DNA of 64,000 nucleotides from Promethearchaeota archaeon. Lineage in GTDB: Archaea > Asgardarchaeota > Lokiarchaeia > Sigyniarchaeales > SOKP01. Made by a program: the position numbers and the translations under genes. The first letter of the stretch is position 1. Each line of letters starts with the position of its first letter. The notes under the pieces are model-generated. The model was not told the DNA's origin and searched no databases. It saw nothing but the letters and a program-made list of their open reading frames with translations. Positions 2,844 through 13,227 of the stretch are shown in pieces. The stretch is from positions 1-64,000 of the forward strand of contig JBHLOY010000003.1 of assembly GCA_048939995.1 (NCBI GenBank), in the 5' to 3' direction.

Positions 2844-3572
2844 TTATAAATTCAATACTCTTTTCTGAATTTTAATTAATTCTGAGATTCCCATTTCCCC
2901 TATATCCAAGACTTCTTTGAGTTTTTTTCTATTAAAAGTGGCACCCTCTGCTGTTCCTTGAATTTCTATAATTTCTGAATCTTCATTTTGTACTAAATTA
3001 AAATCTACATCTGCTTTTGAATCTTCTTTATAGTCTAGGTCTAAAAAAATCTTATCATCCTTTATACCCAAGGATATTCCTGCTGTAACCTTGTAAGACG
3101 GAAAATCATAAATTAAATGTTCATTATAAAGATAATTAATGGCATCAAACACTGCAACAAAAGCTCCAGTTATAGAAGCGCATCTTGTTCCGCCATCAGC
3201 TTGAATAACATCACAATCAACTTGAATAGTTCGTTCACCAATCTTTTCACAATCAAATGCTGCTCTCATTGATCTTCCGATTAATCGCTGTATTTCGTGA
3301 GTTCTGCCTTTAATTCTTAATCTATCTCTTTCTCGGCTATTTCTTACTTGTGTTGCTCTTGGTAACATATTATATTCAGCTGTGATCCACCCGGTTCCTG
3401 AATCTGCTAAAAATCGTGGAACAAAATCTAAAACAGAGGCAGTTATTATCACTTTTGTACTACCCTGAGTAATCAACACAGATCCTTCCGGATATTTAAG
3501 ATAATTGCGTTCAATAGTTGTCTTACGTATTTCATTAAAAGCACGACCATCATTTCTCGCGTTATTAAGCAT
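2844..3572 (-). CDS. rph: Ribonuclease PH (bacterial type)
   Basis: GWITAEYNMLPRAT, GRTHEIQRLIGRS, DCDVIQADGGTRCASITG, DLDYKEDSKADVD and EIQGTAEG, all characteristic of bacterial RNase PH. Confidence 0.93.
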   Translation of the reverse strand: MLNNARNDGRAFNEIRKTTIERNYLKYPEGSVLITQGSTKVIITASVLDFVPRFLADSGTGWITAEYNMLPRATQVRNSRERDRLRIKGRTHEIQRLIGRSMRAAFDCEKIGERTIQVDCDVIQADGGTRCASITGAFVAVFDAINYLYNEHLIYDFPSYKVTAGISLGIKDDKIFLDLDYKEDSKADVDFNLVQNEDSEIIEIQGTAEGATFNRKKLKEVLDIGEMGISELIKIQKRVLNL

Positions 3573-3708: not shown

Positions 3709-4047
3709 TCAGTTTTTTGTGGTTTTCTTTCTCTTTAATTCTGAGTAATAATTTTTGCTATTCTTAGCAATTGAATCTTGTAACTCTCTACTAGCATTTA
3801 TTATTTCTTTCCATATAGCTTGAATATTCTTCTTCATATAGACTGTTGATTTAAGTCCAATTCTTTCGATTAATTCATTTTCTCTTTTAGGTTGTTTAAT
3901 TTTCAAATTGTGCTCTTTTTTAATCTTACCAATTTCAAATGCAATTTCACCCCTCTTGTTTAATAGTTCCGCAATTCTATCATCAATATTATCGATATCT
4001 TTCCTAAGCTTCTCTATTTTATTGTGATGATCGTTTATTTCAACCAA
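3709..4047 (-). CDS. Chorismate mutase, AroQ / type II, stand-alone
   Basis: LRKDIDNIDDRIAELLNKR...IGKIK...RE...SRELQ. TTG start preceded by GAGGTA, 15 nt after the pheT stop. Confidence 0.88.
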   Translation of the reverse strand: MVEINDHHNKIEKLRKDIDNIDDRIAELLNKRGEIAFEIGKIKKEHNLKIKQPKRENELIERIGLKSTVYMKKNIQAIWKEIINASRELQDSIAKNSKNYYSELKRKKTTKN

Positions 4048-4062
4048 ATGAATTACCTCTAA

Positions 4063-5742
4063 TTAATCAAAAAAATGTTTTAGTTCTAATTCTAAAGCGG
4101 CAACTGGAAATTCTAATTTAAAATTACTTAAAACTTCAGGATGGATTTCTCCAACTTCTCCAATCTTAACTCCATTTAAGTAAATGTCTCCATATCTACC
4201 TTTAATGTAACTGGTATTATCACCGGGTTTTACCTCATAATCTGAATCATGACCGAGTGTTGTCATTAAATAATCTAAAGTTGAGCGTATTTCTGTAAAA
4301 TCTGCATCTTCATGGTAAGTTGTTATAGCAAGATGAATTTCTCTCTTTGCACCTGTTTCAGCTTTAGGCTCTAATAAGATTACATCTCCCACTTCAAAAA
4401 TTCTAATCGGCTTTTCTTCAGATCTATTAAATAGTAATGTTTCCATTAACTTCGGGAGAATTCTTGTTCTTAGGGTATTATATTCTTTTGAAACCGGATT
4501 CTCAATCTGTGTTATCTCTCTTTCGGCAATCTCTTGATTCATAAATATAAATTGTTTTTCAGAACTTGCCAGAAGGAAATTTAAGACTTCCAAATAACCC
4601 GCTCCAATCATAATTCTTCGAATTTTATTTGCAAAGTCTTGTATAGGGTGATATTTTCCGATACCTCCTTCTCTTATAGTAAGTGGCAATTTGAAGTATC
4701 CATAACCCATTGCACATTCTTCAGTGAAATCTATTGGGTGAATAATATCTCCTCTATAGGCTGGTACAAAAACATCTAAATAACCCTTTTTTTTTGATTG
4801 TAAAGCATCCATTCTAACCTTTTGAAAACTTTTAATCATTTTTGTTGGAGATAATTTCAAACCTATAACACTATTGATATAATCTATATTTACTTCCCAT
4901 TTAGTCGGTTCCAAGTTAGGGGTGATAATTTCTTGTTCTCCTTCATAATTTACTTTAACACTTTCTACTGTGGCTCCCATATCTGCTAATGTAGTTGATA
5001 AAATATTTAATGCAAGATTTATTGCCTTAAAGTCAGTTCCAGTTAGATCTAAAAATAAATTTTTTGTTTCATCTGTAACTGTAGTTAATACTCCATTTAT
5101 AACTGGAGGAAATGAGAGCACTTCATTATTTTTATCAAATATAACTGGATAGACATCTTTTCCCTCTAAGATATGGGCATATTCTATCCCTTTTTCATGT
5201 AATAATAAAATTTCCTCTAGATTCATTGGATATCCATCTCCATGTAATGGTTCAAAACTTACTGAATCAGGCTTTACAGCGGTATACCTATAAGGAGGCA
5301 CAACCTTATCCAAATCATGGACACCTATCGCTACTTTTTTTCGGTCTCGTCCAACAGCCCAATGCAATTGTTCTTGAATATTCATTAATGTCGCAACCTC
5401 GTCTTCATCCAAATCAATGTTTCGAATAACACCACATACTATATATGGTCTAACCTTCTTTACACTCGGATCGACGTTCAAAATAATATTTCCTCGGGTA
5501 ATTTCAAACTTAGGTAAACCTAATTCAAGTTCATAATAACCCTTGAGAGTTCGGGCAATACCTTCAGGACTGGAAAAATCTGGTCTATTAGGGTTATATT
5601 CCACTTTAATTTTTCCTTCTTGCTCATCAAGACCCTCTACATCTAAACTTATCCATTGCAAGTCATATTCTAAATTTTTCAAATCTAATTGCTTTCCAAC
5701 TAATCTTTCTAATCTTTCAATTTTTAATTCAATAGTAGGAAT
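4063..5742 (-). CDS. pheT: Phenylalanine--tRNA ligase beta subunit (archaeal/eukaryotic type); start extended to ATT 5742
   Basis: NRPD, QEQLH...GRDRKKVAIGVHD, SFPPVING, PAYRGDIIHPID and GEIHPEVL. The frame extends to ATT-CCT-ACT-ATT-GAA ((M)PTIE, the usual archaeal PheT N-terminus) 6 nt after a GAGGTGA SD. Confidence 0.93.
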   Translation of the reverse strand: MPTIELKIERLERLVGKQLDLKNLEYDLQWISLDVEGLDEQEGKIKVEYNPNRPDFSSPEGIARTLKGYYELELGLPKFEITRGNIILNVDPSVKKVRPYIVCGVIRNIDLDEDEVATLMNIQEQLHWAVGRDRKKVAIGVHDLDKVVPPYRYTAVKPDSVSFEPLHGDGYPMNLEEILLLHEKGIEYAHILEGKDVYPVIFDKNNEVLSFPPVINGVLTTVTDETKNLFLDLTGTDFKAINLALNILSTTLADMGATVESVKVNYEGEQEIITPNLEPTKWEVNIDYINSVIGLKLSPTKMIKSFQKVRMDALQSKKKGYLDVFVPAYRGDIIHPIDFTEECAMGYGYFKLPLTIREGGIGKYHPIQDFANKIRRIMIGAGYLEVLNFLLASSEKQFIFMNQEIAEREITQIENPVSKEYNTLRTRILPKLMETLLFNRSEEKPIRIFEVGDVILLEPKAETGAKREIHLAITTYHEDADFTEIRSTLDYLMTTLGHDSDYEVKPGDNTSYIKGRYGDIYLNGVKIGEVGEIHPEVLSNFKLEFPVAALELELKHFFD

Positions 5743-5748
5743 TTTTAA

Positions 5749-5755
5749 TCACCTC
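5749..5755 (-). promoter_or_regulatory. Shine-Dalgarno GAGGTGA overlapping the pheS stop codon (pheS-pheT translational coupling)
   Basis: Minus strand reads AAG-TGA-GGTGA-TTAAAA-ATT-CCT. Confidence 0.75.
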
Positions 5756-7295
5756 ACTTATAATAAGGTTGTTGTCTTAACCATTTTATGGGATTAATAT
5801 AAAAATCTCTTATATCACTCCTTTCATAATAAGGCATCGCGATTCTTTCCAATCCCTGACCCCATGCTAAAACTCGTGTTGGCTCTCGAATTCCCCATGG
5901 ATAAGTCACTTCAGGCCTAAATATTCCAGATCCACCCATCTCTAACCACTCACCTAATTTATCATAAAATACTGAAACTTGCATGCTAGGTTCAGTATAT
6001 GGAAAAAATGCGGGTTTAGTAACAATTTTCTTAAATCCTAATTTTTTATAGAATTCTGAGAGTAATCCAATCAAATCGCATAGTGTTAGATTGTTGTCAA
6101 TTACAATTCCTTCTACTTGGGTAAATTCTGCTAAATGTGATTTATCTACTCTTTCATTTCGAAATACCCTATCAACACAGAATACTTTTACTGGAACTTC
6201 TTCCTGATCTCGATAAAATTGAGCTAATCTTCTCATAGTTGTAGCAGTTGTGTGCGGTCTTAATAAAGTTTTTTTAGCAATATTCTCATCCCATTCGTAG
6301 CCCCATCCTAATGAGCCACTATCTCCTCCGTTCTCATGAGTTGCTTTAATTGCTAATACTCTATCCTTTTCAGGGAGTTTTGCTACTTTTGGATTACTTA
6401 GATAAAATGTATCTTGCAATTCACGCGCGGGGTGGTCTTGAGGTTGAAATAAAGCATCAAAATTATAAAATGCACTTTCAATAATTGGTCCTCTTATCTC
6501 TGTAAATCCCATCGATAAAAATACATCCCTAATTTCGTTAACTAAGTTAATTAAAGGATGTATCTTTCCTGCCTTTAACATAGGTCCCGGTTTAGTGACA
6601 TCAAATGGCTTTATCTCATATTTATTCCAGGTTTTGTTAGCAATCATGTTATGAGTAATTTTGCTGACCTGTTTTAATTCTTTAATTTTAGAAATAGGCA
6701 ACTTTTTACCTTTTTCAGTTAAAAATAATATTCTCTGGGTTTTTCTTGTCTTGTCTATAATTTTTCTTTTGTTTAAAATATCAAGTTGTTGTAAATCTGT
6801 CTTAGATAATGAGTTATAATCCATAATCGGAGCTTTTTCAAATTTTTTCAAAAAAGTCTCTAATTTTGTTTTTGGATATTGATCTGTAATAAGATACACT
6901 TTATTTTCCCCAGTTGCTTTACTCTCTGCAATCCATTTATTTTTCTTCATATTTGAGAGTCCAATATAGAAAAGATTCTTATCGAATTTGGATTCCTTTA
7001 AAAACTCATTTATAGATATTTCTTTAATATCATTTTTGATCAATAATTGTAGAAGTTCTCTTTCAGGTAATCCTTCTTTTAAATATTTTTTCCCTTCTTC
7101 ATTTAATGATATTTTATTTATCTCTTTCTCCTTAAAGCCACCAAGATTATGTTCAATTAAATCATTTATCGCAGACATTAGTACGATATAGTCAAGATTT
7201 AATTCTTTTGCTAAATCTTCTACAATAAGATTTTCTTCTCTTTCTTTTAGAATCTTAAAAATAGATATTACTTGTTTCCTAAGTTTGATTGACAT
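5754..7295 (-). CDS. pheS: Phenylalanine--tRNA ligase alpha subunit (long archaeal/eukaryotic type)
   Basis: NFDALFQPQDHPARELQDTFY, LRPHTT, FRNE, EFTQVEG, FFPYTEPS, GSGIFRPE and WGQGLERIAM. Confidence 0.97.
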   Translation of the reverse strand: MSIKLRKQVISIFKILKEREENLIVEDLAKELNLDYIVLMSAINDLIEHNLGGFKEKEINKISLNEEGKKYLKEGLPERELLQLLIKNDIKEISINEFLKESKFDKNLFYIGLSNMKKNKWIAESKATGENKVYLITDQYPKTKLETFLKKFEKAPIMDYNSLSKTDLQQLDILNKRKIIDKTRKTQRILFLTEKGKKLPISKIKELKQVSKITHNMIANKTWNKYEIKPFDVTKPGPMLKAGKIHPLINLVNEIRDVFLSMGFTEIRGPIIESAFYNFDALFQPQDHPARELQDTFYLSNPKVAKLPEKDRVLAIKATHENGGDSGSLGWGYEWDENIAKKTLLRPHTTATTMRRLAQFYRDQEEVPVKVFCVDRVFRNERVDKSHLAEFTQVEGIVIDNNLTLCDLIGLLSEFYKKLGFKKIVTKPAFFPYTEPSMQVSVFYDKLGEWLEMGGSGIFRPEVTYPWGIREPTRVLAWGQGLERIAMPYYERSDIRDFYINPIKWLRQQPYYK

Positions 7296-7417
7296 CTCAT
7301 TACATCTAAATATTTTTACTTTTTAATATATACTTTCTAAATTTTTAATCTATTTAAATCTTACGCGTAAATATTAGCCTAAAATAACTCTACCTTGAAT
7401 TAGAACAGCGTTATATA

Positions 7418-7512
7418 CCCTAAGGGAGAAATAAATTAAACATAATTAACCATTATAAATTTATTCCGCAGCCAAGGGAAAAATTAAATGTGAGTGTTTT
7501 ATTCCCTTGGCA
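7418..7512 (-). promoter_or_regulatory. Alternative RNA stems in the pheS leader (candidate attenuator structures)
   Basis: Perfect 10-bp stem GCCAAGGGAA (7511-7502) / TTCCCTTGGC (7480-7471). Second stem GGAATAAATT (7467-7458) / AATTTATTTC (7437-7428). The first arm is also complementary to TCCCTTAGG (7427-7419). Confidence 0.55.
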
Positions 7513-7582
7513 AAATAAAGAATTGAAAGAAAAACAAACGTTGCGTGAGACTAGATTTGAAATAAGTATTTATGCTATTCAA
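7499..7582 (-). CDS. Putative Phe-rich leader peptide, 27 aa: MNSINTYFKSSLTQRLFFFQFFILPRE (PheL/PheM-like)
   Basis: TTG at 7582 with SD-like GAGATG 8 nt upstream, codons TTT TTC TTT CAA TTC TTT at 7534-7517, and TAA at 7501-7499. Same strand as pheS and 204 nt upstream of it. Confidence 0.55.
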   Translation of the reverse strand: MNSINTYFKSSLTQRLFFFQFFILPRE

Positions 7583-7639
7583 TTTAATAACATCTCAGGC
7601 AATAATATAATTCTAGATATACAGAAGACCTAAAAAATT

Positions 7640-8101
7640 TTACCTTAAATTCTGACGAATAGAGGTAGAACTGATCTTTTTCTTGTTCTTATCTTTTATT
7701 AATGGTATTATAATTAAGATTAAGCGTTCCATGCCCTTTTCTTCTCTTAGATCATTTAATTTAAGCGCGTTTGGATATGTTTCTTCACTTACAATTAAGC
7801 CATCATAATCTGGGCTTTGAGAATATTTGGCCATATCATCCCAGCTTTCAATTTCTACAATATTAACTCTATTTAAATCAGTAAAAGAATCAATAAAATT
7901 CTTTAGATTTTGTTCTCTGGTAGCATAATCCTCAAGTTTTGAATGAGCTTTTTTATTTTTCAACAAATCCTGAGAAGTTAACCCAATTTCTATTCGGTGT
8001 GCTATTTTTAGAGCTGTTTTTATTAAAAATTTGTGACCTTCATGTAAATGATCAAAAGTTCCGCCCAATCCTAGTTTGTTAAATATAGGGGAACACCACA
8101 C
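7640..8101 (-). CDS. coaD: Phosphopantetheine adenylyltransferase (archaeal/eukaryotic type)
   Basis: GGTFDHLHEGHK (HxGH), IVSEET, N..R...G, and KISSTSIR. Confidence 0.9.
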   Translation of the reverse strand: MWCSPIFNKLGLGGTFDHLHEGHKFLIKTALKIAHRIEIGLTSQDLLKNKKAHSKLEDYATREQNLKNFIDSFTDLNRVNIVEIESWDDMAKYSQSPDYDGLIVSEETYPNALKLNDLREEKGMERLILIIIPLIKDKNKKKISSTSIRQNLR

Positions 8102-11754: not shown

Positions 11755-13227
11755 ATGCCTCGTGGTGGAGGATTTAGAGGCGGCGGTGGTTTCAGAGGAG
11801 GTGGTTTTAGAGGAGGTGGATTTGGTGGTGGTTTCAGAGGAGGCGGTTTTAGAGGTGGTCCTGCAAGTTTCCGTGGAGGTCATAGATCAAGTGGGGTACC
11901 TTTTGGAAGAACTGGAGCTTCACGAGTAGTTTCACGCCCTCCACGTGGTCCATACAGACATGGATATTATTATCCTCATCGACATTATTATTGGTGGGGA
12001 TATAGACCTTGGTACTGGCGGTGGTGGTACTCTCCATGGTGGTCAGGGTATTGGTATCGACCATGGTATTATAGTCCAGCATATATCGGGGGTGGGATTT
12101 TCTTTGTCATCATTCTTGGCTTAGTTCTACTCCCTCTATTCGGCGTTGGATTATGGTTTCCTTTTACTGATGCTAACTCGTCTGGATCTGTCAATTATCG
12201 TTCTACTGAAACACTTTATTATAATGAATATTGGTATGAATACGAATATATTGATATTGGGAATCCTATTACCTATTCAGTTGATTCATTAAATAGCTTA
12301 ATTACATTTGCGATATGGGATCAACCCTTTGAAAATCTGCCCAAAACAACTATAGTAGGTAGTAATCCTCTTGACTCATTTAATCTGATCTATAACGAAT
12401 ATCAATATTTTTGGCTTTTCTTAAATCCGGGATCATCTATTAGTTATGACTTCACTGCAAACAGTTCTGTTGATTTCTTTATAGCAGATGCTTATCAACT
12501 ATACCAATGGAATCAAGGAGGAAGTCCCAGTTTTTATGAAGAGGAATTGAATACTGTTGGTGCCTCCGGATCTTTGCCAATTACTCAAGCAAATGATTAT
12601 TACTTAGTATGGTATAACGACCTATCAGGAACTGTTAATGTTAATTATACAGTTAGTTATAATGCTGCAAATGTAATTGATTTTTCTAGTGCTTATGCAG
12701 TACAAGAAGCCGTTTATGGTGCAAGTGGAACATTTAACGTTCTTAATTCTGGTGATTGGTACTTTTTCATATATTTTGATCCATTTAATTCACCAGAAGA
12801 ATCAACAACTATTACTTTTGATGTAACTTATGATACAGGCGTGACTTATGCTGATAGATGGACAAATATTTCATGGATACTAATTGTAGTACTAGTTATA
12901 ATTGTCATTATCATCATTGTTGCTTTTGCTGCAAGGAGGGGTCAAAAAACTCAGAGTTTAAAAGCAAAAAAAGAAGAAAAGCCAGAGATTACTAAGGAAA
13001 CTAAGCCAACTACTAAAGCTGAAATGGAAAAATGTCCTCGTTGCGGGTTTAATGTCCGGAAAGATGCTAATTTTTGTCCAAAATGTGGAAATAAAGTAGA
13101 AGGTAGAAGTATTGGGACTTCAGAAATAACTACTCCTGCTAAAGCTAAAATTTGTTCTTTCTGTGGTAGTAAACTCTCAGAAAAAGACAAATTCTGTATC
13201 TGGTGCGGAACACCCATTGAAAAATAA
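11755..13227 (+). CDS. Membrane protein: RGG/FRGG low-complexity N-terminus, TM, beta-rich ectodomain, TM, double zinc ribbon
   Basis: (F)RGGG repeats, a YYWW/RPW-rich segment, two TM helices, and CPRC/CPKC plus CSFC/CIWC. GAGGTGA SD upstream. Confidence 0.8.
   Translation: MPRGGGFRGGGGFRGGGFRGGGFGGGFRGGGFRGGPASFRGGHRSSGVPFGRTGASRVVSRPPRGPYRHGYYYPHRHYYWWGYRPWYWRWWYSPWWSGYWYRPWYYSPAYIGGGIFFVIILGLVLLPLFGVGLWFPFTDANSSGSVNYRSTETLYYNEYWYEYEYIDIGNPITYSVDSLNSLITFAIWDQPFENLPKTTIVGSNPLDSFNLIYNEYQYFWLFLNPGSSISYDFTANSSVDFFIADAYQLYQWNQGGSPSFYEEELNTVGASGSLPITQANDYYLVWYNDLSGTVNVNYTVSYNAANVIDFSSAYAVQEAVYGASGTFNVLNSGDWYFFIYFDPFNSPEESTTITFDVTYDTGVTYADRWTNISWILIVVLVIIVIIIIVAFAARRGQKTQSLKAKKEEKPEITKETKPTTKAEMEKCPRCGFNVRKDANFCPKCGNKVEGRSIGTSEITTPAKAKICSFCGSKLSEKDKFCIWCGTPIEK
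11761..11880 (+). repeat. Coding low-complexity repeat (F-R-G-G-G)n
   Basis: cgtggtggaggatttagaggcggcggtggtttcagaggaggt...; synonymous codons vary, so the repeat is maintained at protein level. Confidence 0.85.

Follow-up and report, generated by a model that had tools for sequence, protein, structure and literature searches.

A conserved Phe-rich leader upstream of pheS-pheT-pheA as a candidate ribosome-dependent sensor in a family of Asgard archaea

A phenylalanine-rich leader upstream of pheS

The gap upstream of pheS in a 64,000-nt window of a Promethearchaeota genome (the whole stretch of DNA analyzed here) holds a short ORF that, as comparison with homologous regions indicates, is a translated leader with a selected Phe codon cluster overlapping two mutually exclusive hairpins. 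We regard it as highly probable that this leader is translated and senses Phe in one way or another. We lean slightly towards a more specific reading, in which a ribosome-dependent sensor of charged tRNA-Phe controls read-through into pheS-pheT-pheA on top of a basal level supplied by a downstream promoter, P2. A first-pass annotation of the window had proposed a Phe-sensing attenuator at this position. The sensor half of that proposal has held, with frame, start, Phe codons, and stem conserved and a cognate leader present before leuS, but the output half is unproven, given a conserved BRE-TATA element downstream of the leader and the lack of a terminator hairpin.

On re-reading the sequence, we recovered the minus-strand ORF before pheS exactly as the annotation had described it, running for 27 codons from a TTG start at 7582 to a TAA stop ending at 7499, in a 344-nt gap between the coaD stop (7640) and the pheS start (7295) (Table 1). 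Its other local claims were equally accurate: an SD-like GAGATG at 7596 to 7591 lies 8 nt 5′ of the TTG, five of the six Phe codons fall within 7534 to 7517 (TTT TTC TTT CAA TTC TTT), and a perfect 10-bp stem pairs 7511 to 7502 with 7480 to 7471. The distance from the SD-like element to the Pro codon is 94 nt in most relatives; the SD motifs in use genome-wide, as judged by enrichment, are GGAGG and GTGAT. At least five Phe in seven codons occurred in 8 of the 2,107 cases of a genome-wide scan, and 2 of 3,854 short upstream ORFs of the genome end in a comparable stem, that of the leader being the strongest. A Phe leader with a terminal stem is thus more than a chance occurrence.

Table 1. Features of the leader region and the adjoining operon (window coordinates)
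Feature	Position	Strand	Evidence or remark
Candidate leader promoter P1, AAAA then TTTTTTAG, BRE/TATA-like	7630..7641	minus	Position conserved across genera
SD-like element of leader and 5′ arm of covering helix	7591..7601	minus	GAGATG; family consensus CTTGAG
Phe-rich leader ORF	7499..7582	minus	C terminus FFFQFFILPRE-stop; frame conserved in 72 homologous regions
Partner arm, inside ORF, for SD-like element	7542..7549	minus	Family consensus TCAAG
Phe codon cluster (candidate sensor)	7517..7534	minus	2 to 5 Phe per 7 codons in all homologues
Weak hairpin 1:2, last Phe/Ile/Leu codons with last codon and stop	7498..7519	minus	In-register pairing
Stem 2:3, 10 bp, variable loop; candidate antiterminator/protector	7471..7511	minus	Pairing kept in relatives
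TGCGGA directly after stem, then U-rich patch in most relatives	7465..7470	minus	TGCGGA in 38/72; close variants also occur
Semi-palindromic block CTAATTCAAGGTAG, candidate DNA operator upstream of P2 or small hairpin	7390..7403	minus	Conserved
Downstream promoter P2 (candidate), BRE and TATA	7351..7367	minus	About 55 nt 5′ of pheS; conserved in all genera examined
pheS, PheRS alpha	5754..7295	minus	PF01409, NF003210
pheT, PheRS beta	4063..5742	minus	TIGR00471
Chorismate mutase type II, truncated pheA, no prephenate dehydratase domain	3709..4047	minus	PF01817
coaD, upstream neighbor	7640..8101	minus	NF001985

Conservation of the reading frame and the Phe codons

The comparison covered 72 distinct regions upstream of pheS, drawn from about 10 genera within one Promethearchaeota family. 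The first 30 loci were collected by pheS homology, and all 28 of those with enough upstream DNA carried both the stem and the open frame. Within the set of 72, 28 regions from other genera were chosen by the stem pattern, so that stem conservation among these is by construction, while openness of the leader frame played no part in their choice. The leader frame was free of stops over 24 codons in all of 44 distinct regions, compared with 12 and 0 of 44 for the other frames, and it was still open where the variable part of the leader had drifted to a median nucleotide identity of 46%. Over 20 codons it was open in 72 of 72 regions (other frames, 26 and 10). The product of the open-frame probabilities, ~2e-15 over 33 sequence clusters, is an overstatement because these kin are related. 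A start codon was present in 71 of the 72 regions, with ATG (49) and TTG (22) exchanging at one position. While the first two thirds of the leader drift, the C-terminal Phe cluster, the PR(E/D)-stop ending, and the 10-bp stem are retained, and the cluster window mixes TTT and TTC.

The third bases of TTN codons separate selection for Phe from mere richness in U. In the Phe window these bases were T 113, C 57, A 9, and G 0 times, whereas in earlier codons they were A 57, C 22, T 19, and G 15 times; in the Phe window of other genera the counts were T 64, C 38, G 4, and A 3. The first of these sets of counts amounts to 170 pyrimidine against 9 purine third bases, Leu being rare in the Phe window, and this excess of pyrimidines argues that Phe, not U-richness, was selected. 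The annotation had held that U-richness retained without the frame or the Phe codons would count against it; the opposite was found, with both kept family-wide, and the survey of pheS upstream regions that it recommended yielded the expected conserved short ORF, Phe cluster, and TTT/TTC exchange. Judged by these patterns, the leader ORF is under coding selection.

Of the family's 131 genomes, 92 contain the stem pattern, while a control pattern was almost without matches. Further matches elsewhere or in other families (loci L162 to L173) were rejected as chance, many of them lying inside genes. Two loci of the family are degenerate, L010 without a leader start codon and L129 without the stem, and both keep P2. 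Three others (L011, L067, and L073) retain the leader where coaD does not adjoin pheS. An analogous leader, 21 codons long and with the C terminus PFIFNGPGN-stop, occurs in two genomes of another family; its stem keeps the register, and its spacing is the 200 to 205 nt seen in this family. Since this leader lies behind a divergently transcribed gene, the element is not a coaD terminator. These arrangements indicate that the leader travels with pheS rather than with coaD. In the same two genomes (L037 and L042) we also observed a covarying helix between the bases just 5′ of the leader ATG and the post-stem segment, followed by a second hairpin and a U-rich tail. A third family had no leader in its coaD-pheS gaps, which are 38 to 126 nt long, and none was found upstream of pheS in the family of cultured-type relatives (f2).

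RNA helices around the leader

The first 7 pairs of stem 2:3 were kept in 71 to 72 of the 72 regions, with a mean of −15.8 kcal/mol. One of its pairs varies (G-C 39, G-U 20, and A-U 12 in the 72 regions). The 5′ arm is nearly invariant, however, so that covariation, which the annotation had named as possible support, is thin. Hairpin 1:2 is much weaker, at a mean of −3.5 compared with −15.8 kcal/mol, and 84% of cells paired in register versus 41 to 68% when the alignment was slid. The two hairpins share segment 2 and are mutually exclusive, again with limited covariation. A third predicted helix, of 5 to 6 bp, covers the leader SD by pairing with codons −11/−10, each position being paired in 31 to 40 of 40 sequences. 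One of its pairs reads G-C 13, A-U 13, and U-A 4 times, with ~3 coincident changes on the pheS tree, which lends modest support to a helix maintained over the leader SD by compensatory change.

Downstream of the stem, a T4 run lies within 30 nt in 52 of 72 regions, compared with 29 of 72 further down and 18 of 72 for A4; this genome has no T4 run after the stem. We agree with the annotation that no classical hairpin plus U-tract terminator follows, as relatives share no conserved 3:4 helix: when one was sought, pairing of the 3′ arm with the spacer did not exceed that with shuffled sequence (mean z of 0.16). Occlusion of the pheS ribosome site was also sought, and no consistent change of pairing between the two ribosome states was found. 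Three further candidates were rejected, namely, a long-range pairing of the Phe codons with the P2 region (probability of ~0.3, without covariation), a pairing of TGCGG with the BRE region (inconsistent among relatives), and a fusion of leader and target by readthrough or frameshift (stop-to-start distances vary in every frame).

Promoters and an operator-like block

Candidate promoter P1 lies about 33 to 36 nt 5′ of the SD-like element across genera and is kept at the three loci without an adjoining coaD. Terminators in this genome are marked by oligo-U, and P1 may double as the oligo-U terminator of coaD. In a genome-wide test, a weak one, the P1 motif occurred 6 times in sense and 2 times in antisense orientation in divergent gaps and 0 times in convergent gaps. 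The corresponding counts for the P2 motif were 43 sense versus 25 antisense in divergent gaps and 3 in convergent gaps. The TATA element of P2 has the variants TTTAAATA (42), TTTAAAAA (8), and TTTATATA (4), in line with the archaeal TATA consensus, and lies 111 to 116 nt from the stem in 55 of 72 regions. The annotation had named this TATA-like element (7358 to 7351) as one that would tell against attenuation if it were the sole source of pheS transcripts. It proved to be conserved together with its BRE in all relatives compared, which makes a separate promoter for pheS probable. Of the two promoters, P1 looks the weaker. Regions upstream of tRNA genes were uninformative for promoter inference in this AT-rich genome.

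The operator-like block lies 66 to 71 nt after the stem. Considered as RNA it covaries poorly, with 26 to 36 of 41 sequences paired. Both P2 and the block recur in outline in the second family. In one genus (L155 to L157) the block occurs as a tandem duplicate with ~31-nt spacing, and it is deleted in L152.

Operon genes and neighbors

The annotation had identified three Phe-related downstream genes. Those for PheRS alpha and PheRS beta stand as named, while the third, called chorismate mutase, is better described as a 112-aa remnant of pheA. The pheT start is probably ATT (5742 to 5740), 7 nt after a GAGGTG SD overlapping the pheS stop; relatives use ATT or ATA in five cases and ATG in one. 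We searched this 98%-complete genome for prephenate dehydratase (PDT) and found none, and its two nearest relatives likewise gave no PDT match. In contrast, PDT is present in 30 of 42 genomes of the genus, mostly in a 362- to 402-codon frame just behind pheT, and a full pheA is the third operon gene in the majority of the genomes of that genus. Gene content thus suggests that the ancestral leader target is pheST plus pheA, that is, Phe charging plus Phe synthesis. The genome has aroC and prephenate dehydrogenase, but searches for ilvC, leuA, trpC, and hisG found nothing; together with the missing PDT, these gaps suggest multiple amino-acid auxotrophy.

Directly behind the operon lies an RNase PH-family gene (2844 to 3572, minus strand). 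Elsewhere in the window, 11755 to 13227 (plus strand) encodes a 490-aa protein whose N terminus carries a Gly/Arg-rich (RGG) repeat and whose C terminus carries a double zinc ribbon; it also has an aromatic-rich stretch and transmembrane segments. A PheS-related gene of 532 aa lies by thrS (C37:147938-149534); it is SepRS- or SrmL-like and ~32% identical to the PheS catalytic domain.

A Leu leader before leuS

The genome-wide scan also returned a Leu-rich, 29-codon leader with a C-terminal Leu run before the archaeal-type leuS (C38:43626-43942). It is conserved in 26 of 26 distinct loci of the genus (open frames 26, 0, and 7) and at 3 loci of another genus, with lengths of 27 to 32 codons; no leader was seen upstream of leuS in three more distant genomes. 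Two competing helices, 1:3 and 2:4, follow this leader; a U-run often lies behind 2:4, which is predicted once the first bases after the leader stop are masked. In these folding models the Leu leader shows classical attenuator polarity, and it lacks a canonical second promoter. Rfam gave no meaningful match for either the Phe or the Leu leader.

The suggestion that analogous upstream ORFs precede other operons is accordingly upheld for Leu before leuS only: none rich in the cognate codon was found before the ~16 other synthetase genes located (ArgRS, GluRS, AlaRS, and one of TyrRS/TrpRS not among them), and the biosynthetic genes that might have served as leader targets (ilvC, leuA, trpC, hisG, and PDT) are those not found in the genome. 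The genome encodes two LeuRS enzymes, an archaeal type with the leader (C38:40735-43626) and a bacterial type without it (C23:45103-47889). The archaeal-type enzyme has an atypical KMSKS-like motif, and its gene was not found in many relatives; the Leu leader may thus control an accessory LeuRS. Directly 5′ of cysS (C17, about 332630 to 332740) is a tRNA-Cys-like gene that appears to contain a noncanonical intron close to its T arm and is not listed by ARAGORN.

Proposed mechanism and alternatives

The annotation had suggested termination of uncoupled RNA by aCPSF1/FttA. Taken alone, this has the wrong polarity, as stalling would raise termination. The RNA 3′ of the leader stop carries no translating ribosome in either state, which leaves the hairpins as the place of the switch. 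We propose that transcription starts at P1 and that a ribosome translates the leader behind RNA polymerase. The footprint geometry is that of bacteria, by which segment 1 would be covered by a ribosome held up at the Phe codons and segment 2 by one that has come to the stop. With Phe-tRNA scarce, the ribosome would wait at the Phe codons, covering the U-rich tract and segment 1; stem 2:3 could then form and hide its pyrimidine-rich 3′ arm, loading of aCPSF1/FttA would be blocked, and the polymerase would read through. When Phe-tRNA is plentiful, the ribosome would reach the stop in segment 2, or would depart and let 1:2 form, leaving the 3′ arm single-stranded about 30 to 36 nt behind a polymerase crossing the U-rich patch, so that aCPSF1 could cleave and transcription would terminate. 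The helix over the leader SD would limit reinitiation. Because P2 would supply basal pheST, the leader would act as an inducible boost rather than as an on/off switch.

aCPSF1 is encoded in the genome, and both the U-rich Phe tract and the 3′ arm are present as candidate loading sites. The U-rich RNA bound by FttA lies at −30 to −36 relative to the RNA 3′ end (PMC11616081), a spacing that matches the 3′ arm when polymerase is at the U-rich patch. Competition between the ribosome and aCPSF1 has been proposed, still as a hypothesis (PMC8116511), and some similar-looking Streptomyces leaders are insensitive to codon swaps (PMC1262725).

The same Phe sensor could have an inverted output through transcription interference, as in SRG1/SER3-like promoter interference by read-through. 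Stalling at the Phe codons would then let stem 2:3 and the U-rich patch form a terminator, which would free P2, while plentiful Phe would allow read-through over the operator-like block and P2, repressing both. Such a scheme would account for the near-fixed distance of P2 and the block from the stem, seen also in outline in the second family, and for the terminator-like succession of stem and U-rich patch in 52 of 72 regions; that hairpin/U-tract terminators can function in archaea (PMC13675443) also counts for it. We nonetheless consider it unlikely, given that the read-through RNA would still carry pheS with a ribosome site that is not consistently occluded, that P1 appears the weaker promoter, and that the Leu leader combines classical polarity with the lack of a canonical second promoter.

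Slightly less likely again is that the leader forms a separate small unit, a small protein or a stem-ended dual-function sRNA, with pheS transcribed from P2 only and a factor bound at the operator-like block. The complete promoter with its operator-like element downstream of the leader, the coding constraint on the ORF, and the persistence of P2 at the two degenerate loci (L129, which lost the stem, and L010, which lost the start codon) are all consistent with this. Against it stand the lack of sequence conservation in the N-terminal two thirds (median of 46% nucleotide identity) and the fact that the invariant residues fall on nucleotides of the stem (CCA always, TTT always). The leader also stays beside pheS when the upstream gene changes, and a separate unit leaves the cognate match at both pheS and leuS without explanation.

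Two further possibilities retain ribosome involvement. A Phe sensor acting posttranscriptionally, on pheS translation or on the stability of the long mRNA (e.g., with the stem as a barrier to a 5′-3′ nuclease), would suit the lack of a terminator helix and resembles mycobacterial polycysteine leaders, which act on translation (10.1101/834739), but we deem it improbable, as the pheS ribosome site is 200 nt away and its predicted pairing is not consistently changed. Marginally more doubtful is a TnaC-like arrest, in which the FF(I/N)LPR(E/D) end of the nascent peptide would stall the ribosome on free Phe or another ligand. The F at −3, the P, and the R are indeed (nearly) invariant just 5′ of the stop, but the same codons are invariant at synonymous positions too, as RNA pairing explains, while the upstream residues that would span the tunnel vary freely and the Leu leader has no such motif. 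Lastly, that there is no regulatory ORF and that the U-rich tract and stem merely terminate coaD is very improbable: oligo-U tracts do mark terminators in this genome, but the open frame in 72 of 72 regions, the interchange of start codons, and the selection of Phe over Leu contradict it, the element is kept without coaD, and another family's coaD-pheS gaps of 38 to 126 nt hold no such element.

Comparison with known attenuators

Leader-peptide attenuation is textbook bacterial regulation, and in Escherichia coli both the pheST and the pheA operons carry Phe leaders. As in pheM-pheST (the E. coli pheST attenuator is described in PMC1262725) and pheL-pheA, the archaeal leader is a short Phe-rich ORF before the same targets, in a system where the ribosome selects between 1:2 and 2:3. 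It shares with classical attenuators a constrained upstream ORF, a cognate codon cluster, and exclusive helices over sensor and stop; an intrinsic 3:4 hairpin plus U-tract terminator is lacking, although the Leu leader has such a helix. It further differs from E. coli pheM/pheL in having no sequence or structure match to them, in its archaeal host, in joining pheST and pheA in one operon, and in having a second promoter between leader and pheS, so that the transcript layout comprises candidate P1 upstream of the leader and conserved P2 downstream. The Rfam Phe_leader family (RF01859) had no match in the genome, while an E. coli control matched, and on this ground we take the likeness of the leader peptide to E. 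coli PheL to be convergent. T-boxes and metabolite riboswitches likewise had no Rfam match in the region.

Among other bacteria, predicted attenuators of Streptomyces leuS and trpS also place cognate-codon leaders before synthetase genes, and actinobacterial cys leaders are likewise without an obvious terminator, factor-dependent (Rho) termination having been proposed for them (PMC1262725). Those leaders are bacterial, whereas the factor here would be aCPSF1/FttA, and no homology is shown. In mycobacterial polycysteine leaders, too, the cognate codon run of a short ORF senses charged tRNA (10.1101/834739), but these pair with a downstream SD, and no such pairing was found before pheS. Upstream ORFs have been reported from Haloferax, without an attenuator-type role (PMC7261190). 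The present arrangement combines a leader ORF with hairpins. In Methanothermobacter, by contrast, a single cognate codon, TrpY W2, reportedly senses charged tRNA; this is a proposed mechanism, and the codon is part of a repressor gene and involves neither a leader ORF nor an RNA switch.

Implications

In the literature searched, a coverage that leaves out most subscription journals, we found no description of archaeal leader-peptide attenuation. If the proposed mechanism is correct, Archaea would have their first leader-peptide attenuator in this Phe leader, which would also be the first such element to gate termination by cleavage, or else would act by interfering with a promoter further downstream. 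On balance we find it probable that one Asgard lineage independently evolved ribosome-based sensors, for Phe at pheST-pheA and for Leu at leuS, with the Phe leader coupling decoding speed to aCPSF1/FttA or acting by interference with the downstream promoter. The leader would also provide a compact, portable substrate for the hypothesis of competition between the ribosome and aCPSF1/FttA (PMC11616081, PMC8116511), and it may be usable as an amino-acid biosensor in archaeal hosts. This family of Asgard archaea probably gauges amino-acid supply with the ribosome. aCPSF1/FttA is the homologue of eukaryotic CPSF73. A family-wide Asgard case would show regulatory use of transcription-translation coupling in the lineage closest to eukaryotes.
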